Source of the DNA: Oligoflexia bacterium
GTDB lineage: Bacteria > Bdellovibrionota > UBA1018
Reading direction: 5' to 3'
DNA: 64,000 bases
Assembly (NCBI GenBank): GCA_963758495.1
Contig: CAVWVI010000003.1
Coordinates: 1,344,001 to 1,408,000, forward strand
The position numbers and the translations under genes are program-made. The notes beneath the pieces are model-generated. The model was not told the origin of the DNA. It worked only from the letters and a program-made list of their open reading frames with translations, and searched no databases. Positions 5,026 through 34,241 of the stretch are shown here, in pieces (positions within the stretch are counted from its first letter, which is position 1; every line of letters begins with the position of its first letter).

Positions 5026-7225
5026 TAGATCAATCTTCTCGTATTCACAGCTGATTAAATTCATAATTAATCCATATGAGAACCAAACTTGTGGTGTCAG
5101 GTTGGATTTTACTCTTATCCATTCCTTTTTTTTCTTCCGTTTGGGCTGGGCCAGGGTCAGACTCCATTCAACTTCCCTCTCTCAAGACAGATGGGGAGAA
5201 ACTCGCTTTCCTGATTGAGATCAAACAGAAGATTCCCAAGCTTTTTGGCGATGCAGCAAAGTACGACATCGATCTTTTCTCATTGCTTGACGATGAGACA
5301 CAGTTATTAGAAAGGTTGAAATCGAATCCCAAATACCTTCATGCATTCGAGAATAAATCCTATGACGAAATTACCGTAACCCCTCCTCCGGGAGGTTTGG
5401 AGGTGGGCACTCGAAAGATCAAGCGAGAGGCCATCCAGCAATGGAAGAGCCAGCTCAATCAAACACTCCAAAATGTCGAAAGAGGAGGTCCCTCTCCTCA
5501 AAAAGCAGTGAGTTCTCAGATCAATGGAATTGTCGAGAGCTTGGAAGATTCTGGGGACTTTTCGAATCTCTCAGGTAAGAAATTCGGTCGTCTTTTAGCA
5601 GAGTTTGGGAGGGAAAAACAAAACCAGGCACTCTTTAATGAAAAAATTGGAAAAGCTAAAGACTTGGATCTGAAAGGCAGGCTGGCTTTGGCGCTAGAGC
5701 TCTATGATCAGTTTCCAGTCAAGCCTCATGCCGTTACAAAAGAACATCTGGAACGCGCGATCCAATCTTTGTCCGAGGTTGAAAAGCTGATCTCCTTGTC
5801 TGCCTTACAAGTGGTTCTTCACCGTCCTGGACAAGCAGAGCATGCAGATGAAATACCCTGGGAATCTTGGAAGGCCGCCGAGGATTCTTTGAATCAACTG
5901 AATGGACAGGACCTTGAGTTTTTTCTGGATAAACAAGATGCCTTAGCTCCTTTGGTGAGGAGTTCAATCTCTCATCAAGTTCCTGCGATGAGTGCACTTG
6001 AACCCCAATTGATTGAGGCTATTTTCGAAGGTATTGAATTTTATGCTCAGCAGACCGAGGGAGAATTGCAAAGGGCAACTGAGAAAATTCGGCTGACTCA
6101 GGTTCCTCCAGCGGTAGGAATCTTTCGGGGATGCACGGGTGGAGATTGCTCTTCACGGTATTCTTTTCCCTATCCCAATGATCCTCACGAGCGAGTGTTT
6201 TTTATTTACGATTCAGAGGACCAACTCAAAGGCTATGTGAGTAGTACGGAAGTGAGGGTTCAGGGCGAGCCCTCTCTCTATATCATTACGATAAGCGGAA
6301 ATCGGGTGAATGCAGCGGATACGGAATTAGTTTTAAGAGCTTTGGAGCGGGCAAAAGATCAGCTGGGTGTAAAAAATATTCTACTTCCAGAGCCCTCTAA
6401 AGTCGCCGGTTTAATTAATTTCTCAGAAATTCGGGGAGTTTATGAAATGTACACTCAACAGAAGCCTCTCCTCCCCATCCAATATCAGGCGCCTGCCCTC
6501 AGGAAAATCATCGAAAGGTATGAAAATCAGTTGAATAGTGGCCAGTATGATCACATGAAAAACAATCGGCACGGAGTGGTTTTAAAATTCTCGGATCAGA
6601 AGTCAAGTCAGTTGTCTGTCCAACATGAAAGACTTTCCGATACACGAATTCTTTCCAAGTCATTAAGTGAGATTCAAAATTCGGATATTGTGGAGTTTCT
6701 GTTGGATCTGAACAAGTCAGGACGGAGCGAGATCGTGCAGAAAGTGACTCAAATTCAAGAAGTCCGATCGAAGATCAATCTGAAACATTTTATTAAATTG
6801 ACTGATGATTTGTTGAAGAAATGCTCGGAAAAAGCAGGCAGTCCTCTGAGCGTACAGACTTACCGACACCAAGTTCAGACTTTGTTCTCTGAATTAGGAA
6901 TGGATTCAAACTACCTGGAAAATCATCTCGCTCTCCTCTATCCTGGCATTGTTCATTGTCAGGACCCCTATTCGGATCAAAATATTAATTTGACTGCAAA
7001 TTTCATTATCAAGGATATCAAGGAAACTGACAGGCTTTATCCACAAGGGATAAATTTGTCCGCCCTGAAAGACTCAGATAAAAAAGCCATTTCACAGAGC
7101 GCTCCGTTTTTGAAGTATTATAATCAATTATCGCAACAGATCAGCGATCCGAGTTTTAAACTTTCTGAAAACGTTGTACGAGCTTTTGGAGCATTGCTCA
7201 GGTTGGGTGATCTCAAGATAAAAGA
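5026..7225 (+). repeat. Left arm of ~2.2-kb inverted duplication (partner ~10066-12310)
   Basis: Near-identical reverse complement including ~50 bp upstream of both ATGs; proteins align with two short indels; right boundary approximate. Confidence 0.92.
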
Positions 7226-22853: not shown

Positions 22854-24839
22854 TTGGTTCCTATGACTTGGCAGACTTTCGCATTTTTGATCGTTGCAGG
22901 CTCCGCATTTGGTTATTCCGGCTATCGCTTTAGCCTTCTCTTGAAGATGATGAAGAATCATCAAGGAAAAGCCGCAAAGTATGATCAAATCTCCCAACGA
23001 ATTCTAACTACTATTGCCAACGTCTTAGGCCAAAAGGCCGTGCTCAAAAAAAGAGCTGCTGGAATCATGCATGCCACCATTTTTTGGGGCTTCTTAGTCA
23101 TCACCACCGGCACATTAGAACAATTTGCCACCACTCTCTACCAGCCGGCAAATTTTCAATTTATCGGTATAAGTGCTTATTCCTGTTTAGTCTTCCTACA
23201 AGACATCTTTACCCTTGCGGTACTCGTGGCAGTAGGATTTGCCTGTTATCGAAGATATATTATTCGTCCTGAAGGCTTAGGGAAATCGGTAGATGCCAAT
23301 CGCGTTCTCGCGTTAACAAGTTCCCTGATGGTCTCCATTCTTCTCATGAATGGCTTTCATATTTTAGGAATGGATCCTTGGTACAAAACAGCAATGCCTG
23401 TTTCAAATTCCCTAGCTCATTTTTTAAGCCCACTGGGATTCACTCCTTACACAAATGACGTCTTCAGTACTTTTTTTAAGTGGATTCATATGCTCATTGT
23501 TTTGGGCTTTGCGGTTTATATTCCCAGCTCAAAACATCTTCATATTGTAGCCGCTGGACCCAACACATTCTTACGCACTCTGACTCGAGAAAAGGGCATG
23601 AAACCGATCAACTTTGAGGATGAATCGGTTCAGCAATATGGCGCTGCCAAAGTGACGGATTTGAATTGGAAAGATGCCTTAGACTATTACTCCTGCACTG
23701 AATGTGGAAGGTGTCAGGATCTTTGTCCCGCTTACAATACAGAAAAACCCCTTTCGCCGAAAATGCTCATACTGGACCTTAAAAACAACATGTATAGCAA
23801 TAAGGAAAAAATTCTTGCGGGAGAGATCGATCAAGTCTCTCACATTATTGACTCACATGTTACGGAAGACGTGATTTGGGCATGTACTTCATGTCGCGCT
23901 TGCGAAATTGCTTGTCCAGTATTCATTGGACACACCGATAAAATCTATGACATCCGACGCAATCTCGTGATGATGGAGTCACGCTTTCCATCTGAAGTAC
24001 AAACTGTCTTCAAGAATATGGAAACGAATGCGACTCCTTGGGCATTTAGCTCATCCGACCGAGGAAACTGGGCTGAAGGCCTCTCCATTAAAACCATGGC
24101 GGAAAGCTCGGACGTGGATGTTCTGCTCTGGGTTGGATGTGCGGGCTCTTACGACGATAGAAATAAGAAAGTACTTCGGGCCTTTGCGAGCGTCCTTAAG
24201 AAAGCAGGAGTTAAATTTGCGATTCTAGGCACTGAAGAACAATGTACTGGAGATCCTGCTCGCAGAATTGGAAACGAATACCTTTATCAAACACTTGCAA
24301 AAGCAAATATTGAAACCCTAAATCGCTATCAAGTAAAAAAGATTGTAACTGCTTGCCCACATTGCTTCAATACCATCAAAAACGAGTACAAAGATTTTGG
24401 CGGTAACTACGAAGTTCATCATCATTCTCAATTTATTGCCCACCTTATTGCTCAAGGTAAAATCAAACCTACAAAAACTCTCGATGATGCGGTTACTTTT
24501 CATGATAGCTGCTATTTAGGGCGTTGGAATAATATTTATGATGAGCCTCGAAGTGCTCTTAAATCTCTTCCTTCAATCAACCTGATTGAAATGAAAAACA
24601 ATCAGGACAAAAGCATGTGTTGTGGTGCTGGAGGAGGTAGAATGTGGATGGAAGAAAAAATCGGCAAGCGCGTCAATATTGTTCGAACTGAGCAAGCTCT
24701 CGCTACTCATGCCGGCATTGTGGCATCCTCTTGCCCATTCTGTATGACCATGATGACTGACGGGATCAAGTCTAAGGATATGCAGGATAAAGTAAAAGTG
24801 ATGGATATCGCCGAACTCATCGATCAATCCACGCCCTGA
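22854..24839 (+). CDS. Membrane Fe-S oxidoreductase (FadF/HdrD-like, CCG domains)
   Basis: N-terminal TM helices; CTECGRCQDLCP, CTSCRACEIACP; CCG-type motifs CTGDP, CCGAGGG, CPFC. Confidence 0.9.
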   Translation: MVPMTWQTFAFLIVAGSAFGYSGYRFSLLLKMMKNHQGKAAKYDQISQRILTTIANVLGQKAVLKKRAAGIMHATIFWGFLVITTGTLEQFATTLYQPANFQFIGISAYSCLVFLQDIFTLAVLVAVGFACYRRYIIRPEGLGKSVDANRVLALTSSLMVSILLMNGFHILGMDPWYKTAMPVSNSLAHFLSPLGFTPYTNDVFSTFFKWIHMLIVLGFAVYIPSSKHLHIVAAGPNTFLRTLTREKGMKPINFEDESVQQYGAAKVTDLNWKDALDYYSCTECGRCQDLCPAYNTEKPLSPKMLILDLKNNMYSNKEKILAGEIDQVSHIIDSHVTEDVIWACTSCRACEIACPVFIGHTDKIYDIRRNLVMMESRFPSEVQTVFKNMETNATPWAFSSSDRGNWAEGLSIKTMAESSDVDVLLWVGCAGSYDDRNKKVLRAFASVLKKAGVKFAILGTEEQCTGDPARRIGNEYLYQTLAKANIETLNRYQVKKIVTACPHCFNTIKNEYKDFGGNYEVHHHSQFIAHLIAQGKIKPTKTLDDAVTFHDSCYLGRWNNIYDEPRSALKSLPSINLIEMKNNQDKSMCCGAGGGRMWMEEKIGKRVNIVRTEQALATHAGIVASSCPFCMTMMTDGIKSKDMQDKVKVMDIAELIDQSTP

Positions 24840-24932: not shown

Positions 24933-25121
24933 TTAAGTCTGTTTTAACTTTGGAAGAAAATCCTTATGGGACGCAATAAATCGCTTCAATGCTGTATTTG
25001 TAATCTCAGATTGAGTCAATTGTGAGTGCTTCTCCATAAGGTGGAGAGTTTTCGCTACTTCAAGTTCAATTTCAACTTCTAATTTTTCAGTTTGACCCTT
25101 GAGCTTATAATCATCAAGCAT
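24933..25121 (-). CDS. Small hypothetical protein (possibly ribbon-helix-helix)
   Basis: 62 aa, AAGGAG RBS; SEITNTALKRFI resembles RHH helix 2. Confidence 0.6.
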   Translation of the reverse strand: MLDDYKLKGQTEKLEVEIELEVAKTLHLMEKHSQLTQSEITNTALKRFIASHKDFLPKLKQT

Positions 25122-25204: not shown

Positions 25205-26206
25205 TTAATTTATTGATCGCCCCCGGAGCAAATCTTTCACTACTCCATACATCACAGAAGGCAAGGCTTCCAGCTCCTCTACCTCTCGAACCACTCCTCT
25301 GCCTCGTTTAGCCATATCTCGACATAGTTCATAACTGGCGCGCTCCCGACCCATTTTTAAAAGTACTAAATGTGGGAATCTCGATGCTAAATAACTGGGA
25401 TCTCTTCCCGCCGTGTATTTTCCATCTGTCAACAGAACCACAGAAGGGGGCCTTCCAATGCCGCTTGCTATTAATGTAGTCATGAGTTTTAACGTCGCCC
25501 TCATTCCGTCTTCAAGATGAGTATAGCCTTGGGCGGGTACGTCCAAGAACCTTTCTAAGAGTTGGAATACAGATATGACTTCATCTGGACGCTTGAGTAT
25601 TTTTGCTTCATTTTCAAAGGCAATCATTCCAATAGGATCTTCAGGGAATTGAAGCAATACTACTGCCAACGCAACAGCCGTAAGTGCTAACTTCTCTCCC
25701 GTCATAGAAAGGCTAGTATCTACCGTCAATAGAAGAGGGTATCGACGATGAACCGAATAACTCATCCAAATATCTGGATCCGTCAGAGGATGAGGAGAGT
25801 TTTCAATCGTCTCATCCAAATCCAAATCCACTTGTTCTGCACTACTTGGAACGTCTCTCCAAGGCACTATTCTCTGCTCCATAGGCCGCACCACTGAGCC
25901 GAGTACTTCTCGAGCTCTCTCTAAAATAGCTTCTGCAGAGATCTTACGTAGATGATTTGCAAGCTTCTGGGAAGAACTCTTGGACTTAAACTCATGGTAA
26001 CGTGTAGCGACATCCCATCCACTGGAGTTTTTTATATCTATTTCTAGCGCATCTGATTCCTGATTAGAACTCGAACCAAAAGTTTCGGGTGGGAAAAACT
26101 GAGGTTTGGGTAACTGATGATCATCTGACTTCTTTGAGTCAAAAATACTACGAAATACATTACGTTTTTTAGTCAGATCGTTCTCAGGTGGCAGCGAATT
26201 TATTTC
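25205..26206 (-). CDS. VWA-domain frame, probably reached by -1 frameshift from the MoxR gene
   Basis: MIDAS motifs DTSLS, GYT, LLTDG; frame stays open 104 codons upstream of the GTG at 25894 with no ATG/GTG/TTG, up to the slippery site. Confidence 0.8.
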   Translation of the reverse strand, partial: EINSLPPENDLTKKRNVFRSIFDSKKSDDHQLPKPQFFPPETFGSSSNQESDALEIDIKNSSGWDVATRYHEFKSKSSSQKLANHLRKISAEAILERAREVLGSVVRPMEQRIVPWRDVPSSAEQVDLDLDETIENSPHPLTDPDIWMSYSVHRRYPLLLTVDTSLSMTGEKLALTAVALAVVLLQFPEDPIGMIAFENEAKILKRPDEVISVFQLLERFLDVPAQGYTHLEDGMRATLKLMTTLIASGIGRPPSVVLLTDGKYTAGRDPSYLASRFPHLVLLKMGRERASYELCRDMAKRGRGVVREVEELEALPSVMYGVVKDLLRGRSIN

Positions 26207-27138
26207 TTTTTTTTTACCCCATCTGAAGTCACAGGGTTCAGTACTTCATCCACCCAACCTTTTAATAAAGACTCCATCTCAGATCGTAAAGTTTTACCTT
26301 CGTCTGAATCACGCTCAATTTCAATACGCGTAGGCAATGCCAAAAGCGTGGCAGATAAAAAAGCATCGGAAAAGATCATGCCTTCTTGAATCATGACACT
26401 TGCGATCTCTGCAATACTCAAAGCAGCACGGACAGATGCACCTCTTCTTATCCGAGCATGGCTACGAGTCAATCTTGTCAACAAAACTGCCGATACAGTC
26501 AGGCGATGGCCCAAAGTAGAGTCAAGAGCCGGAGAACTCACCCTGAGCCGATCTCCCACGATCCGAATTTCTTCTTCTTCGCTTTGATAATCGAGCACCA
26601 CTAATTCAAACCGATCTAAAATAGCTTCGCTTAAATGTGAGGTCGCTACAAATTCCTTGGGATTTTGAGTTGCAATCACCTTAAATCCAGGAGCTGCTCT
26701 GATTTCGCCCAAACGAGGAACTACGATCATCCTTTCATCAATGGCGGGTAGTAAAACATTTTGAACCCCTTCGGGCAATCGATTGAGTTCATTAATAAAA
26801 AGAACTCCACCTTTTTGCATCGCTTCTACTAAGGGCCCCGGCATAAATGTATCTACTGTAAATCCGTTTTTAATCACACTCGGTGGGTCAAACCAGCCCG
26901 ATAATTTCTGCTCCGAATAACGATTGTCGCCGTCCACGCGAAATACCTGTGACCCCAATTCACTCGTCACAGCCAAAGCTAAATGAGTTTTCCCTACACC
27001 CACCGGCCCTTCTAATAAGATATTCCGATGAGCTCGTAAGCATGCTCGAATCTGTAAAACTTCATGACTACGGCCTACTAACTCTAGAGAACTGTGCTTC
27101 GATAAATGAGATGAGTTATGAGATAAATCCGTAGTCAC
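26200..27138 (-). CDS. MoxR-family AAA+ ATPase
   Basis: Walker A GPVGVGKT, Walker B variant LFINE, ATQNP, LSEAILDRF; GTG start overlaps the dehydrogenase stop (GTGA). Confidence 0.9.
   Translation of the reverse strand: MTTDLSHNSSHLSKHSSLELVGRSHEVLQIRACLRAHRNILLEGPVGVGKTHLALAVTSELGSQVFRVDGDNRYSEQKLSGWFDPPSVIKNGFTVDTFMPGPLVEAMQKGGVLFINELNRLPEGVQNVLLPAIDERMIVVPRLGEIRAAPGFKVIATQNPKEFVATSHLSEAILDRFELVVLDYQSEEEEIRIVGDRLRVSSPALDSTLGHRLTVSAVLLTRLTRSHARIRRGASVRAALSIAEIASVMIQEGMIFSDAFLSATLLALPTRIEIERDSDEGKTLRSEMESLLKGWVDEVLNPVTSDGVKKKK
26206..26215 (-). other. A9G slippery site (A_AAA_AAG) two codons before the MoxR stop
   Basis: Minus strand GTA AAA AAA AAG AAA TAA; the -1 frame continues GAA ATA AAT into the VWA frame. 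Confidence 0.7.
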
Positions 27139-28190
27139 TCCTTCGCTGCCTTCCGAATTCGTTCCTCTGCCATCCGATTGGCGACCCATTGAGTGGGAAA
27201 CTTTTCCTCTTCAGCACGATTGAGAATATGAGTAATCGTCTGCTCAATTCGAACTATATGATCAAATGCTCCCGCTCGGTTATAAACACCTTGGACTGTA
27301 TCCTCATAATAAATATTGATCAGGCCCCCAGCATTAATTGCATAATCTGGAGCATAAGTAATTCCTCGGTTCATGATTTCATAATCCAGCTCAGCGGTAG
27401 CCAATTGATTGTTTGCAGCACCTGCAATAATTTTAGACTGAATTCGAGGAAGGGTTTCAGGGCTGATCGATAAACCTAATGCCGAGGGTGCAAAAATATC
27501 GCACTTCACATCATAAATAGCATGAGGAGAAACTATTTCTATTCCGTATTTTTTTACGGCTCGATCAATCATCGCACTGTCGATATCACAGCCAATCACT
27601 TCCGCGCCATCTGCAATCAAGTGTTCGAGCAAATAATAAGAAACACTTCCTAAACCCTGGAGAGCAACTTTCACTCCCTTAAGCGAATTTGCTTTAAAGA
27701 CATGTCGTGTACAAGCACGCATGCCATGATACACGCCCCAGGCAGTTGCAGGAGATGGATCTCCACTCGAACCGACATTCCCTTCGATACCCAGTACATG
27801 TTGAGTTTTAGACTTAATTTGCCTTAAATCATCTGCACCAATTCCAACATCCTTTGCAGTAATATAATTTCCACCTAAGCGATCTACAAATTCTCCAAAT
27901 CTCGCAAGCATTTGAGGATTTTTTTGAGACTTCGGATCTCCTAAAATGACTGCTTTTCCTCCTCCCCAATTGAGTCCTGCAAGAGCGGCTTTATAAGTCA
28001 TTCCTTGAGATAATCGCAATACGTCATTAAACGCTTCCATCTCCGAAGCATAATTCCACATTCTACAACCACCGGTGGCTGGCCCGAGAATGGAAGAGTG
28101 AACAGCAATAATTGCGCGTAGTCCTACCGATGAGTCATTACAAAACACAATTTGTTCAAAACCATCCGTTTGAATTTTCTCAAAGATCAT
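27135..28190 (-). CDS. Glu/Leu/Phe/Val dehydrogenase (leucine dehydrogenase-like)
   Basis: LGPATGGCRM, MTYK, GGGKAVI, GDPSPATAWGV, QGLGSV, AGAANNQL, PDYAINAGG. Confidence 0.92.
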   Translation of the reverse strand: MIFEKIQTDGFEQIVFCNDSSVGLRAIIAVHSSILGPATGGCRMWNYASEMEAFNDVLRLSQGMTYKAALAGLNWGGGKAVILGDPKSQKNPQMLARFGEFVDRLGGNYITAKDVGIGADDLRQIKSKTQHVLGIEGNVGSSGDPSPATAWGVYHGMRACTRHVFKANSLKGVKVALQGLGSVSYYLLEHLIADGAEVIGCDIDSAMIDRAVKKYGIEIVSPHAIYDVKCDIFAPSALGLSISPETLPRIQSKIIAGAANNQLATAELDYEIMNRGITYAPDYAINAGGLINIYYEDTVQGVYNRAGAFDHIVRIEQTITHILNRAEEEKFPTQWVANRMAEERIRKAAKE

Positions 28191-28723: not shown

Positions 28724-30262
28724 CTATGTCCAGTTGAGCCCTGGGGTTTTAGCCGCCAGTTGTGCGGTTGATTGAATTTCAGCGACTTCAAGTGAGGCAG
28801 TCGGCGTAGTACAGTAAAGTGTCGCATTCACTGCTGTGGGAAAATGGTTCCCACTCTTTTTCAGTCCACCAAAAGGAAGTCGAGAAGATGCACCTACAGT
28901 TGATTTATTCCAATTAATTAAACCCATCTCTAAACCATCCCAGCACTTTTCATAAACAGCCCTACTCTGAGAGAAAATACTCGCGACTAGGCCGTACTGG
29001 GTTACATTGGCTTGCGCGATCGCTTCGTCCAATTCTGAAACTCCCTGAATACATACATTAGGTGCAAATAATTCTGTCTGCTGATAGGTGCTTTTTCTCG
29101 CTTGCTCAAGCGAAAGTTCCTTAATCCAACAAATTGACGGAGTCACATAATTTCCATTTACAGAAAGCTCTAGCGCCTTGCCCCGCATGATCAATTCACA
29201 GCCTTCTCGTGAGGCGATTCCCAAAAATTTCGTGTACCGATCCATAGAACCTTGATCAATCAAGGGCCCCATAAAGGGATTATCCAATGGATGACCAATC
29301 GAAAATGACTTAGCTCGTTGATGAAATTTTTCTGTAAATTGTTCCAAAATCTTATGTTGAACTAGAATTCGACTTGTCGCACTACATCGTTGTCCTGCGG
29401 TCAAAAAGGCTCCCATGAGCGTTTCATAAACAGCACCCTCGATGTCAGCATCTTCCCAGACAATAGTGGCATTCTTTCCACCCATTTCAAGAACAAGCAA
29501 CTTCCAATGTTGCTGAAGAGTATCTTGTTTAATGCGAGTCCCTACCTCGTATGAGCCCGTAAAAAGAACTCCGTGAACTCCCTCATGAACACATAGACGC
29601 CGCCCAACTTCCTTTTCACCTTGAATTAAATTAAACACTCCTGGCGGAAAGCCTGCTTCTTGAAAGCATTCTGCCATCAACTGCCCCACCATAGGGGCTT
29701 TTTCAGAAGGCTTAAAAACGAGGGTATTGCCCGTCAGTAAAGCAGGAACAATATGCCCGTTAGGCAAATGACCTGGAAAATTAAAAGGACCAATCACAGC
29801 CATAACGCCTAGAGGTCGATATTTACAAACCCCTCGTGTATTTTCCATGATTTTAGGAATTTCGAAGTCGGTAACATACCTCAGAGATTCCGTAAGAGTA
29901 ATTTCTACTTTATTGAGCATAGCAGAAACTTCCGTCCTCGCTTCCCAAGCGGGCTTCCCTACCTCTCTTGAAATCACTTCTACAAACTCTTCCTCACGTC
30001 GCATTAAAATCGATTGGTACTTTTTAAGAAGTTCGGAACGTTCTGAAATTGATTTTCGACGCCACGCAGGAAAAGCCATACGACCTGACTGAACGGCTTC
30101 ATCAACAGATAAATAAGAATATTGAAATTTACCTAATTCATCAGAATAATCCGCCGGGCTTTTACTTACCCACTCTCCTTGTGGATCAAGCGGCGCTTTA
30201 AAATGCCCTTGAATAAAATTACCCCTTGCCGAAACTTTAAAGTTAGATTTCGTCATACTCAC
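28724..30262 (-). CDS. astD: Succinylglutamate-semialdehyde dehydrogenase
   Basis: GPFNFPGHLPNGHIVPALLTGN, FTGS, LEMGGKN, GQRCS, PFGGLKKSGN; adjacent to astA. Confidence 0.88.
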   Translation of the reverse strand: MSMTKSNFKVSARGNFIQGHFKAPLDPQGEWVSKSPADYSDELGKFQYSYLSVDEAVQSGRMAFPAWRRKSISERSELLKKYQSILMRREEEFVEVISREVGKPAWEARTEVSAMLNKVEITLTESLRYVTDFEIPKIMENTRGVCKYRPLGVMAVIGPFNFPGHLPNGHIVPALLTGNTLVFKPSEKAPMVGQLMAECFQEAGFPPGVFNLIQGEKEVGRRLCVHEGVHGVLFTGSYEVGTRIKQDTLQQHWKLLVLEMGGKNATIVWEDADIEGAVYETLMGAFLTAGQRCSATSRILVQHKILEQFTEKFHQRAKSFSIGHPLDNPFMGPLIDQGSMDRYTKFLGIASREGCELIMRGKALELSVNGNYVTPSICWIKELSLEQARKSTYQQTELFAPNVCIQGVSELDEAIAQANVTQYGLVASIFSQSRAVYEKCWDGLEMGLINWNKSTVGASSRLPFGGLKKSGNHFPTAVNATLYCTTPTASLEVAEIQSTAQLAAKTPGLNWT

Positions 30263-30283
30263 ACCCTTTCTAAGATGACTCTC

Positions 30284-31336
30284 TCAATAATAAGGCATAA
30301 ATGCGACTAGATCGTCTTTTTTTAATCCTAGAACTGTTCGTATGATCTCCGTCGAAGGCTCTAAAACATGAATTCGCCCCTCTTGAAGATGGGCCTGAGC
30401 AGCAATCGCCCGAAATTCTCCTGGCTTCTGACTCATACTACATAAGATCCCCGATTCACAAATAGGGGAAGCATTTGCTCCCTGAGTAGTGTCTAAAAAA
30501 AGCCGAGTAGCCATTCTCTTAACAGGAAGAATATCATCTACATTTGCCCACAAATGAGGCCCACCATCAAATGGATCGACCTGGTTTTTATATTGAAATC
30601 CAATTTTCCTTAACATATGCAAAACAGGTTCAGTTTCTTTTCCAACTTTTCCAATTGCATTTCGAGCTTCAGCCGGAAGAAAAGTCGTATATATTTTTCC
30701 TGATGGAAAAAGAGAAAAAATAAACTCTTTGTTTTTTCGGCAAAGTTGATCCGCCTCCCCATAATCCATGTTTGTGAATCTTCTACCAATCGCCTCCCAA
30801 AGAGGAGATTGTCCTTTTTTATTCAGGGGAGGGAGTAGCTCTGCAAGAATTTTTCTCTTAAATTTATTTCGATTCAATCCTAGAAATAAAAATCGAACAA
30901 ATGAAATCTGGCGTCCAATTCGACTTTCTGAATTTCTATATTGAGGATCGAGTACAAGTCCACCAATCTCAGAAGGTCCATTAGTGTCGTATTTGAGTTT
31001 CAATGTTCCATGGATAAAACCAGTACTAATTGTTTCTGAAAACTTTTCTTCACTACCCACTTCAAAATAAAAATGCGGTGACTCTACCGAACCATGCTGA
31101 CCTGCGATCATCGAAGTCCCTAAAATTTGATGAGTTTCTATGTCTTCCGCAACAAATATATATTTTCCATCAAACTTATTAGGAGCATCCTCTCGAAATG
31201 AGGCCACTGCTCTAAGAATTTTCTCTCGTAATAAATCTTTATCATTAGGAAGATTAATAAAACCGGGAGTCTGAGAAAATTTTTCTAAAGCATCTAGATC
31301 TTGCTCTTTGATTTCTCTCAGAAGTATCATAGACAC
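30284..31336 (-). CDS. astA: Arginine N-succinyltransferase
   Basis: GFINLP, SEIGGLVLDP, RFLF, SPLWEAIGRRF, DPFDGGP. Confidence 0.88.
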   Translation of the reverse strand: MSMILLREIKEQDLDALEKFSQTPGFINLPNDKDLLREKILRAVASFREDAPNKFDGKYIFVAEDIETHQILGTSMIAGQHGSVESPHFYFEVGSEEKFSETISTGFIHGTLKLKYDTNGPSEIGGLVLDPQYRNSESRIGRQISFVRFLFLGLNRNKFKRKILAELLPPLNKKGQSPLWEAIGRRFTNMDYGEADQLCRKNKEFIFSLFPSGKIYTTFLPAEARNAIGKVGKETEPVLHMLRKIGFQYKNQVDPFDGGPHLWANVDDILPVKRMATRLFLDTTQGANASPICESGILCSMSQKPGEFRAIAAQAHLQEGRIHVLEPSTEIIRTVLGLKKDDLVAFMPYY

Positions 31337-32808
31337 ACCTGTTCAATGACTCTTTCATAAAACCCAACAGCCTTCTCAATATGCTCTAATAAATTATGCT
31401 CATTAGGGCTATGACTGTTTCCTTGAGACTTTCCAGGACCAAAAACAATTGCAGGATAGCCTGCTTGAAAATATTGCGCAGCTTCGGTTGAAGTCGCTTT
31501 TTTTGAAAAAGCTGGCTCAATTCCAGCCGATATCATTGCCTCTTTACATATTTTTAACAACTCATCATCAGCCGACAAATTCAAGCTAGGGTTCATTCGT
31601 TCTCGGACTACTGCAACATTTAAACTCGGATAACGAACAGCTATTGCCTGAATCCCCTTTTGAATGGTTTGCTCTATTTCTTGAGGAGGGATTTCTGGCA
31701 AAAGTCTTAAATCAAAATGCAGCTCCATAATTCCCGATCTTTGCTTCAGTTGACCGAAGTTTACTGTAGAACAGGATGGATCATAGGTTTCATCGTTAAT
31801 TTTAGAAATTTGAACGGATAGCTCTTTGAAAAATTTTGTAACCTCTGTGAGACAGGGAAAAAGGTTATCGGGCAAAAACCTCACGCCTGAATCACCTACG
31901 CCCCCAAGTTCTACTTTAAAAGCCTTGTCTGGACTATCAGATCGACTCGACTCTCGAAAGAACCGTTTAAAATCTTCAAACTGATGCGAGGTCAAATAAA
32001 ATTGAGTTGACGCATGATCAGGAACTTTATTGACCGTATCTCCGCCATCCAAGTGGGTAAACCGAATTTCAAAGCCCTGATCTAAGGCACGATGAAGAAA
32101 ATCCAACGAAGCAAGAATCGCATTGGTTCCTAAATGTGGATATGAGCTATGTGCAGATTTTCCATATGAAAGCAGATCGATTTTGCGATTGAATCCTCGA
32201 GCATCTCTTTCGATCATTTGATATCCAATAGATACACGATAAATATTTAAACATTTATGAGCGTACACTACTTTTAATTCTGACGGTTCTCCAACAAGAA
32301 CATATTTTGGATTGAGCGCCATGGACTTAATCAAATATTTTGCTCCAAACATTCCAATTTCTTCACCACAGGTGCCCACTAAATAAATTGGATTCTTCAG
32401 TTTTTTTTCTCTAAATTTTTGAACTGCATGTAATTTACAGAGAAAATCCAGTTTTACATCTGCAGTGCCTAATCCAAAAATTTTTCCATCTTTTAGCGTA
32501 ATGCCAAAAGGATCCGCCCCTGTTTCGGTCCAATTCTCTTTTATCCCTGGACTGACAGTATCCAAATGAGTATTCAGTAAAAGCCCTTTTCGAATTTTTC
32601 GATCGGAAAGAGGATCTCCTAAAACACCAATCACATTAAATTGTCGTTTGGAAATAAGCTCATTTGAATGGGTGACATGCTGAATCTGGGTCTTCAGACC
32701 TCGATCTTGCATCAAGGCCGTTACATAATTTGCAATTTCTTCATTCCCATTTACGCTGACAGAATTAATTCTAATAATCCGTTTTGCATCCTCTAAAAAG
32801 CGCTTCAT
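31327..32808 (-). CDS. M20 family amidohydrolase (ArgE/DapE-like) with expanded dimerisation region
   Basis: NTHLDTV, GLGTADVK, GEEIG, VGEPS, GKSAHSS, GPG..SHSPNE. Confidence 0.85.
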   Translation of the reverse strand: MKRFLEDAKRIIRINSVSVNGNEEIANYVTALMQDRGLKTQIQHVTHSNELISKRQFNVIGVLGDPLSDRKIRKGLLLNTHLDTVSPGIKENWTETGADPFGITLKDGKIFGLGTADVKLDFLCKLHAVQKFREKKLKNPIYLVGTCGEEIGMFGAKYLIKSMALNPKYVLVGEPSELKVVYAHKCLNIYRVSIGYQMIERDARGFNRKIDLLSYGKSAHSSYPHLGTNAILASLDFLHRALDQGFEIRFTHLDGGDTVNKVPDHASTQFYLTSHQFEDFKRFFRESSRSDSPDKAFKVELGGVGDSGVRFLPDNLFPCLTEVTKFFKELSVQISKINDETYDPSCSTVNFGQLKQRSGIMELHFDLRLLPEIPPQEIEQTIQKGIQAIAVRYPSLNVAVVRERMNPSLNLSADDELLKICKEAMISAGIEPAFSKKATSTEAAQYFQAGYPAIVFGPGKSQGNSHSPNEHNLLEHIEKAVGFYERVIEQVCL

Positions 32809-32819
32809 TTTTTTACCAC

Positions 32820-34241
32820 CTATTTAAAATTTTTCTGAGCTTTACTTACGTCAAGAAGTGCCGCTTCTATATAAGAACAGACCCGATCTACATCATCCTG
32901 CGTCATGACACCCAAAGGTGGGAGCATACGAATAAAATAAGGGCCATGACCACAATAAAAGGCAACAACCCCGTGATCAAAAAGGCGCATTAAAACAGAT
33001 TTAACTTCATTCATAGTTCCGCTGAAGGGGGCGAAGGCGATCATGCCTCCGATCGCTCTTATTTCTTGGATCATACCTTTGCAGGAAGTTAAGGATATCT
33101 TCTCGAGCTGCTGGGTAAAACGTGAGGACAATTGTTCAATTTTACCTTCTTTACCTAAATAGCCTCCCTCAGAAAGCAGTTCAATAACGCGACGAGCTGT
33201 TCGTAACGCTGCAGTACTTCCAGAAAAAGTTCCTGCGACCAACCCAGCTTGAGGATTGTACTCTTCTGTATAGAGAACCATACAGGACTGAAGCATTTTT
33301 CCTAGAGTAACTACATCCATGTACTCATTTAAAAAAAACTTTTGATAGGCAAACATCTCGCCTGTTCGTCCGAAGCTTTGAATTTCATCCGCCCAAATTG
33401 CCAAACCGTACTTTTTCGCTTCTTCAAAAACACGAACATAAAAATCACGAGGGGCATATTGAAATCCCCCTTCCCCTTGAATCAACTCAATCATCAGTGT
33501 AGCAAATTTATCAGGATAGCGAACCAACAACTCACGCATCGCGTTAAGAGTTGCATCGATGCTAGCCTCTAATCCTATTTTTGGATTATAAAAAGGAAGA
33601 TAATGAACTTCTCCATAAACGGGCTGGCCTTGTCTATAACTTGGATTATCTGTAATTTCCTGCATTGCAGTAGACCGCCCTGCAAAGCAATCCTTAAATG
33701 CTAGTACTTTAGTAGCAGGGAATTTTTTTTGTCGAATGATCTTCAAAGCAACTTCATTGACCATCGTCCCACTACACATCAACCAGCCATGCTTGAGCCG
33801 ACTTCCTGCACCTACTTGAGCAAGAACTGCAGTCAAAACGGCCTTCATTTCAATGCCAGGCTCTAAATTCCCTTGCATCACATCAGATGGCAAACCATCA
33901 ATCATTTCTTCGATCATTGCGGGATGGGAATGACCAAAAAAATTAATCCCAATCCCAGTAATCATATCGAATTTGACACTACCATCCAGTAATTCAATCA
34001 GAGGGCCGTTACCTAATCCCGAAGCTAAAAACGGAAAATAGAGGTCCCTTCCCCGATCCTGACAAAACTCACGGATCTCTTTCAGATAGGCTTCCCTTAA
34101 TTCCGGAGAAGAAGCACATGGCTTCACCCCTTTCAGCTTTGAACTTCCCTCAAAAATAGCTGCAAGAAGTTCTTTTTTTGCTGAAAGAAAACGAGGGGAT
34201 TTCCGTAAAGTGGCGGATTCAGTCGTCAGCTCAAGTCTCAT
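32820..34241 (-). CDS. Class III aminotransferase (AstC/ArgD-like)
   Basis: FGHSHP, ELIQGEGG, ADEIQSFGRTG, TLGK PLP lysine, GTFSG. Confidence 0.85.
   Translation of the reverse strand: MRLELTTESATLRKSPRFLSAKKELLAAIFEGSSKLKGVKPCASSPELREAYLKEIREFCQDRGRDLYFPFLASGLGNGPLIELLDGSVKFDMITGIGINFFGHSHPAMIEEMIDGLPSDVMQGNLEPGIEMKAVLTAVLAQVGAGSRLKHGWLMCSGTMVNEVALKIIRQKKFPATKVLAFKDCFAGRSTAMQEITDNPSYRQGQPVYGEVHYLPFYNPKIGLEASIDATLNAMRELLVRYPDKFATLMIELIQGEGGFQYAPRDFYVRVFEEAKKYGLAIWADEIQSFGRTGEMFAYQKFFLNEYMDVVTLGKMLQSCMVLYTEEYNPQAGLVAGTFSGSTAALRTARRVIELLSEGGYLGKEGKIEQLSSRFTQQLEKISLTSCKGMIQEIRAIGGMIAFAPFSGTMNEVKSVLMRLFDHGVVAFYCGHGPYFIRMLPPLGVMTQDDVDRVCSYIEAALLDVSKAQKNFK

Follow-up and report, generated by a model that had tools for sequence, protein, structure and literature searches.

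Organization of the AAA-VWA locus

The window analyzed here, a 64,000-nucleotide stretch of contig CAVWVI010000003.1 from an Oligoflexia bacterium (assembly GCA_963758495.1, 92% complete), carries on its minus strand a MoxR-type ATPase gene followed by a VWA-encoding frame, with the features listed below.

27135-28190, minus strand: leucine/valine dehydrogenase-like gene, whose TGA stop shares bases with the GTG start codon of the ATPase gene (GTGA)
26200-27138, minus strand: ORF1, MoxR-type (AAA_5) ATPase, short product, identified by its open reading frame and Pfam match
26986-27009, minus strand: GPVGVGKT, the Walker A motif; G44, G47, G49, K50 and T51 are invariant in the alignment
26788-26793, minus strand: atypical Walker B motif LFINE, with Asn replacing the usual Asp; N116 and E117 are invariant in 38 of 38 rows
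26207-26215, minus strand: A9 slippery run (GTA AAA AAA AAG); 9 to 11 A's in 124 of 126 split junctions
26200-26202, minus strand: zero-frame TAA stop, one codon past the AAG; the gap between run end and stop is 0-1 whole codons in 81 of 126 junctions
25205-26245, minus strand: ORF2, which is in the -1 frame and open from 26245; it would be entered at the run and extends 333 codons past it
25895-26206, minus strand: 104 start-less -1 codons comprising a variable linker, F..PE, W-D-V-A (TGG at 26017) and a predicted helical bundle; natural fusions have the same region
25418-25732, minus strand: VWA core (VWA_2 match), with MIDAS DTSLS at 25720-25706 and the T and D intact

The ATPase frame ends GGG GTA AAA AAA AAG AAA TAA, and re-reading of the minus strand gave exactly the terminal codons of the original prediction. 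The VWA frame lies at -1 with respect to the ATPase frame; it opens past a TGA at 26248-26246 and closes at a TAA at 25207-25205. Its earliest ATG, GTG or TTG is at 25894, 104 codons past the A9 run, and all coordinates that had been assigned to this frame (opening at 26245, absence of a start until 25894, 104 codons) were reproduced. The ATPase likely starts at GTG 27138, with ATG 27189 as an alternative, and its unshifted product is 312 or 329 aa long from the respective starts. With a single added A, or with a -1 shift, the product is 644 aa long (661 aa from ATG 27189) and has the junction peptide ...GVKKKEINSLPPE. These lengths agree with the earlier proposal that a 312-aa ATPase and an ATPase-VWA protein of ~640 aa come from one gene, a proposal that the orthologs described below also support. 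Pfam matches above cut-off were AAA_5 (75.7 bits, cut-off 22) and VWA_2 (33.9 bits, cut-off 27).

The GTGA overlap between the dehydrogenase stop and the ATPase start suggests translational coupling. Past the VWA gene lies a 59-codon ORF without a Pfam match (24945-25121, minus strand), and farther upstream is an arginine succinyltransferase-type cluster (28724-34241, minus strand; class III aminotransferase, M20 peptidase, AstA and aldehyde dehydrogenase). A promoter scan found 2 sites where 8.0 were expected.

Conservation of the A-run and of the -1 frame

Matches to the VWA part were found in 87 of 101 related genomes and in 119 of 401 genomes of the phylum. After removal of six loci with one gene missing, one with an N gap and 28 duplicates, the 162 fetched loci yielded 127 distinct Bdellovibrionota junctions, three genomes supplying two junctions each. 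The shift was -1 in 124 of these 127 junctions, which are kin, so that this and the following counts overstate independence. At least nine A's were present within 60 nt 5' of the ATPase stop in 124 of the 126 split junctions, the run being A9 in 58, A10 in 62, A11 in four, A8 in one and A6 in one. The comparison with orthologs that had been proposed as a check thus showed that orthologs keep the A-run with a stop close by and stay at -1, and that no VWA start is conserved.

Elsewhere in the same two ORFs, no run of at least nine A's occurred in 151,300 nt (87 loci, G+C 35 to 68%), and AAG accounted for 500 of the 1028 lysine codons outside the junction in these loci. The absence of such runs elsewhere and the common use of AAG for other lysines indicate that selection acts on the nucleotides of the run. 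Its last lysine-position codon varies among AAG, AAA and AAC (87 loci), and the A9 runs fall into three phases (51/6/1). The organism's own order is distributed 51/1/0, and the runs from other orders, 6 of 6, lie in the remaining phase. Conservation therefore lies in a stretch of nine or more A's and not in the A_AAA_AAG heptamer originally emphasized. Of another 120 short homologs, 108 have at least three consecutive lysines within their last 22 residues. Phase changes and fusions were scattered over a quick tree (82 rows, subsampled, unrooted), which was used only for viewing this scatter.

Several junctions depart from the common pattern. In L052, which has an additional break downstream, the -1 frame is conserved straight after the run. 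The reading is +1 in L089, whose run is A8. A second paralog in genome G017 (L098:1547-3523) is fused in frame with A8 and retains a relic TAA in the shifted frame; it is either a reversed arrangement or an assembly error. L015 (genome G050) has six A's only (A_AAA_AAG) and an intact -1 frame. Finally, L214 (run at 5879-5888) and L215 share an identical ATPase sequence in two assemblies, L214 being fused in frame with A10 and L215 having A8 with a break.

These departures bear on a phase-variable DNA switch, in which replication slippage would toggle the gene between A9 (ATPase only) and A10 (fusion). The A8 of L089, the in-frame A8 of L098 and the L214/L215 pair are the kind of variation that such a switch would leave, but the in-frame state was found in just one of the 127 Bdellovibrionota junctions and A9, A10 and A11 all accompany the -1 state. 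The frame is kept while the run length varies, unlike in a toggling tract, and a switch is very improbable. An even smaller chance is given to a homopolymer assembly error within a continuous fused ORF. Natural fusions of the two halves do exist, which is what this explanation would need, but many genera show the same split in independently made assemblies, the stop lying 0-1 codons past the run in 81 of 126 junctions, a result that answers the caveat raised with the original prediction. Sequencing reads matched to the window gave one 151-nt contig, at 25477-25627, away from the junction.

Coding sequence upstream of any start codon and natural fusions

The -1 frame upstream of 25894 is conserved in orthologs and includes F..PE, a helical segment and W-D-V-A, whose W is present in 84 of 85. 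No conserved Met column was found in the alignment ahead of the W motif. In 16 of 93 scorable loci, this window included, there is no ATG, GTG or TTG ahead of the W, and in the window the first start codon sits 41 codons past it.

Longer relatives comprise 457 proteins of at least 584 aa; among the 120 listed, most have VWA Pfam labels and a few are named Thermoplasmatota. Twenty-four natural fusions, when aligned, match the joined product collinearly across the W region and on into the VWA domain. Among 80 metagenome loci, for which the alignment was fusion-led, 70 were fused single ORFs, three were split and seven were incomplete. The linkers of the fused loci have runs of six A's or fewer in 69 of 70, the remaining one being L214 with ten A's in frame, and a -1 shift at A9 was seen in L222 and L242, which are split. 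No second ATPase copy was found in the fetched flanks of the 73 metagenome loci scored. Since many lineages are fusion-only and have no second ATPase in the fetched flanks, the short product does not appear to be universally encoded nearby.

The conventional reading of the locus is of two ordinary genes, in which translation of the VWA protein would begin independently, from a near-cognate codon or one farther downstream, and the A-run would be incidental. MoxR and VWA proteins are typically encoded separately (see also PMC13036017), and some ATG, GTG or TTG precedes the W motif in 77 of 93 scorable loci. The candidate start codons, however, are at scattered positions among the loci, the first start in the window falls beyond the conserved W, and separate initiation leaves unaccounted for both the A-only lysine codons, where AAG is used in 500 of 1028 cases elsewhere, and the fixed -1 frame. 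Two ordinary genes are accordingly considered very improbable.

Probable recoding and its possible mechanism

Recoding of one kind or the other, yielding the 312-aa and 644-aa proteins, is very probable from the comparative sequence evidence. The proposed arrangement is of one AAA+-VWA gene interrupted by the conserved A9 run and a stop codon. RNA polymerase would slip on the A9 run, so that part of the transcripts gain one extra A; slipped transcripts would be translated into the 644-aa ATPase-linker-VWA protein and unslipped transcripts into the 312-aa ATPase. We put the chance that transcriptional slippage is the mechanism a little above even.

Slippage is favored over a ribosomal event by the conserved length of the run, the use of three phases, the lack of a conserved hairpin or Shine-Dalgarno (SD) stimulator and the early stops in the third frame. 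Runs of at least nine A's irrespective of phase are found in 124 of 126 junctions and in three phases, and efficient slippage has been reported at nine A/T, with a 9-10 bp hybrid (PMC5009743). No downstream hairpin was conserved across 85 loci (mean z -0.08 to -0.25 at offsets 0-40), nor was an upstream hairpin conserved across loci, and the anti-SD profile was flat, without a clear peak (best mean -2.17 kcal/mol). In the window, the 76 nt downstream of the run have a weaker fold than their shuffles (z +1.36). A stop in the third frame lies within eight codons in 74% of 122 loci, compared with 48-62% in 200 shuffles of synonymous codons, which leave the -1 protein unchanged, a difference in which the kinship of the loci overstates independence. 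The genome carries both tRNA-Lys genes, including the cognate tRNA-Lys(CUU), and Thermus slippage has been linked to the presence of two tRNA-Lys (PMC5009743). With regard to direction, the orthologs are -1 in 124 of 127, and the in-frame runs of L098 and L214 may be either real or assembly errors.

Alternatively, all transcripts could carry A9 and ribosomes could frameshift by -1 or slide on A_AAA_AAA_AAG, with the same two products as the outcome; this is a substantial possibility, albeit one that we hold to be less than even. The fixed direction (-1 in 124 of 127) agrees with it, as a conserved shift direction has been taken as a sign of ribosomal frameshifting (PMC3711429, section 10). Furthermore, 51 of 52 A9 runs in the organism's own order are in a single phase giving two overlapping heptamers, A_AAA_AAA plus A_AAA_AAG occur together in 61 of 87 junctions, and L015 keeps an intact -1 frame with a bare A6G; this locus is the best natural test case for ribosomal frameshifting. 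Published work describes chlD recoding as ribosomal (PMC9227772) and reports that ribosomes can slide on poly-A (PMC4363877). On the other hand, a heptamer needs just 6-7 A's, yet at least nine are kept in 124 of 126 junctions; other families use other phases; there is no conserved stimulator and the fold downstream in the window is weaker than in shuffles; the cognate tRNA-Lys(CUU) gene is present; and robust cell-free sliding required 11 A's (PMC4363877). In E. coli, 40% frameshifting was obtained from a chelatase cassette that starts GTA AAA AAA AA and whose A9 has the phase seen here (PMC3711429, section 24 and Table S2), indicating that the bare signal can work. Polymerase slippage and ribosomal frameshifting may both be at work.

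Two features of the wider genome also speak for slippage. In its 2236 long ORFs, runs of ten or more A's are avoided (2 seen, ~42 expected). An IS630-like transposase gene in the same genome is split at A9 with a -1 continuation in three copies (L246:804-812, at ~194503 of C3, and copies on C1 and C4). Two further A9 runs lie between a long ORF and a -1 ORF (L245, at ~495966 of C1, and L247, at ~575904 of C4), one of the upstream ORFs being S8-peptidase-like and the other unassigned; both sites are probably ordinary overlaps.

Protein domains and predicted function

The ATPase has a MoxR-type AAA domain, with AAA_5 (75.7 bits) and AAA_3 (47.9 bits) both above cut-off and Walker A present. The canonical Walker B motif is hhhhDE. 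It was not found here, where the motif reads NE, as it does in 117 of 120 homologs. Scores for named MoxR equivalogs were below the NCBIfam cut-offs (GvpN, 76.3 against 266.8 bits; MadB, 49.9 against 475; CobS, 27.2 against 558.55), and by these scores the AAA-VWA family is an unnamed MoxR-type family outside the GvpN, MadB and CobS equivalogs. Among single-domain proteins of solved structure, NorQ was one of the nearest in sequence (63 bits).

The MIDAS residues D152, S154, S156, T218 and D250 are invariant in 38 rows. The predicted fold of the -1 product (pLDDT 90.8) consists of helices, a three-strand stretch and a VWA domain, and its best fold matches were Rea1-MIDAS and NorD VWA, with 13-16% identity. 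In NorQD, a VWA finger inserts in the hexamer pore (PMC13036017). By analogy, we infer a client-remodeling hexamer with a bound VWA partner, in which the short and long proteins would form one mixed hexameric ring carrying about one tethered VWA adaptor, whose MIDAS site would grip the client while the ring works the adaptor, as NorQ works NorD.

Comparison with known systems

The locus resembles frameshifted chlD genes (fs-chlD), in which, according to PMC3711429 and PMC9227772, an AAA+ ORF ends in a poly-A run with a stop within a few codons and VWA follows in the -1 frame. In both cases one gene gives a short and a long subunit and fused relatives are known, and the AAA+ and VWA halves of the present gene are likewise parted by a poly-A -1 site and a nearby stop. 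The downstream stimulatory RNA structure of fs-chlD was not found at the present site, and the window sequence differs from ChlD in its scores against the ChlD-type models (TIGR02442, 33.2 against 779.45 bits; TIGR02031, 31.2 against 499.55 bits). A natural fusion (P0030) scored 63 bits in the ChlD/CobT-type comparison. TIGR02442 at E<=1e-30 had no match in 151 genomes of the phylum, and ChlH/CobN (PF02514) had none in this genome, which is 92% complete; the control was positive in 5 of 14. ChlH/CobN is missing in some fs-chlD genomes as well (PMC9227772). Membership in ChlD was rejected on the TIGR02442 and TIGR02031 scores, the phylum-wide absence of TIGR02442 matches and the absence of ChlH/CobN. 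The AAA-VWA gene thus parallels frameshifted chlD in its way of working, but its sequence places it outside ChlD.

NorQ/NorD and CbbQ/CbbO also pair a MoxR-type ring with a MIDAS-bearing VWA protein (PMC13036017). The adaptor in those systems is the product of a separate gene, whereas here it would be tethered to the ATPase via recoding; the Walker B motif here reads NE and the fold identity is just 14-16%. Thermus thermophilus dnaX (PMC5009743) shares with the present site a nine-base run, the proposed polymerase slippage, near stops in other frames and two tRNA-Lys; there, however, slippage yields the short product and the long one is read in frame, whereas here the long one would come from slippage. 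Midasin/Rea1, an AAA ring with a linker-tethered MIDAS/VWA domain, gave the top sequence and fold matches, the sequence scores being sums over several stretches. It has six AAA modules and one VWA domain in a single chain, in contrast to the present gene, in which slippage would set the ratio.

Gene neighborhood and candidate client

The leucine dehydrogenase-like gene, which the original prediction took to be co-transcribed with the ATPase gene, adjoins and overlaps it in this window and is a neighbor in just 3 of 88 loci. A conserved linkage was rejected on this count, the association being local to the lineage.

The usual upstream genes among relatives are kamD-kamE, with kamE upstream in 52 of 88 and in 35 of 40 loci (its identity was checked on L039). 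Lysine 5,6-aminomutase is the best client candidate, on gene order, where kamD-kamE are present, but not the sole client: no kamD turned up in 31 of the 87 genomes that have the VWA gene, this genome included. No kamD, B12-binding domain or ChlH/CobN was found in this genome (92% complete), and KamDE as sole client was rejected for it because kamD-kamE were not found. In other clades the neighboring genes vary (MttB, a corrinoid protein, MtrH, a class III aminotransferase and a permease), and no common client could be named from them. Fused homologs at L203-L213 and L239 adjoin genes for MttB methyltransferase, a corrinoid protein and MtrH, which is another B12-linked context. A plus-strand gene at 22854-24839 of the window, past two ETF-like ORFs, presumably encodes a membrane Fe-S/CCG oxidoreductase; in 27 of 89 loci this gene and the VWA gene are transcribed toward each other.

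An in-frame TGA in the actinobacterial sister clade

A plasmid search gave two matching loci, both from Rhodococcus (L243, NZ_CP145320.1; L244, NZ_AP023173.1), and no member of the actinobacterial clade was found in a viral sequence scan. Both loci score ~205 bits on the family ATPase profile and 106-131 bits on the VWA profile. The ATPase ends CCC GGT TGA AGA GC (L243:5880-5893 and L244:5877-5890) and the VWA part continues in the same frame; the A-run is absent. With an X at the stop, L243 aligns with the natural fusion P0365 at 52% over 639 columns, and the similarity resumes directly past the stop (AVEADSPL to AVAADSPL), ahead of the earliest possible starts at codons 24 and 16. The residues PG are the protein end in 119 of the best 120 actinobacterial-clade homologs. 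Walker B reads EE in this clade, compared with NE in the Bdellovibrionota-type clade. These two DNA loci suggest that the actinobacterial TGA is a conserved stop-codon readthrough candidate; alternatively, there may be a conserved protein end and a separate VWA start.

Taking these data together, we would give about even chances to a broader model of one widespread AAA-VWA family in which the same protein pair is encoded in three ways: as a plain fusion, by a poly-A -1 slip (Bdellovibrionota and others), or, within a large actinobacterial clade, by programmed TGA readthrough (Rhodococcus, Gordonia, Geodermatophilus and relatives). Recoding would then be an interchangeable dial for the number of VWA adaptors per ring.

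Significance

The literature searches gave no paper on recoding in the AAA-VWA family, although an unnamed GeneTack cluster of PMC3711429 could cover it; the words MoxR and Willebrand are absent from the available text of PMC3711429 and from the first 300,000 characters of PMC5009743. The recoding trick itself has already been published for chelatase genes, and its use in the AAA-VWA family was not found in the literature searched.

Conserved recoding in bacterial chromosomal genes is rare, and the present site is kept across several families of one phylum. Annotation treats the locus as two genes, with the VWA protein truncated. The variation in run length and phase offers a natural panel for distinguishing polymerase slippage from ribosomal frameshifting at poly-A, which is not yet settled for signals of the chlD type. 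Readthrough of the actinobacterial TGA, if it occurs, would make frameshifting and readthrough interchangeable within one bacterial gene family, and the broader model, if true, would add a conserved case of cellular bacterial stop-codon readthrough in cultivable hosts and provide a bacterial counterpart of midasin's built-in six-to-one layout. In conclusion, the results suggest that the chlD trick extends to a separate AAA+ family, in which it may set the ratio of adaptor to motor in MoxR rings.
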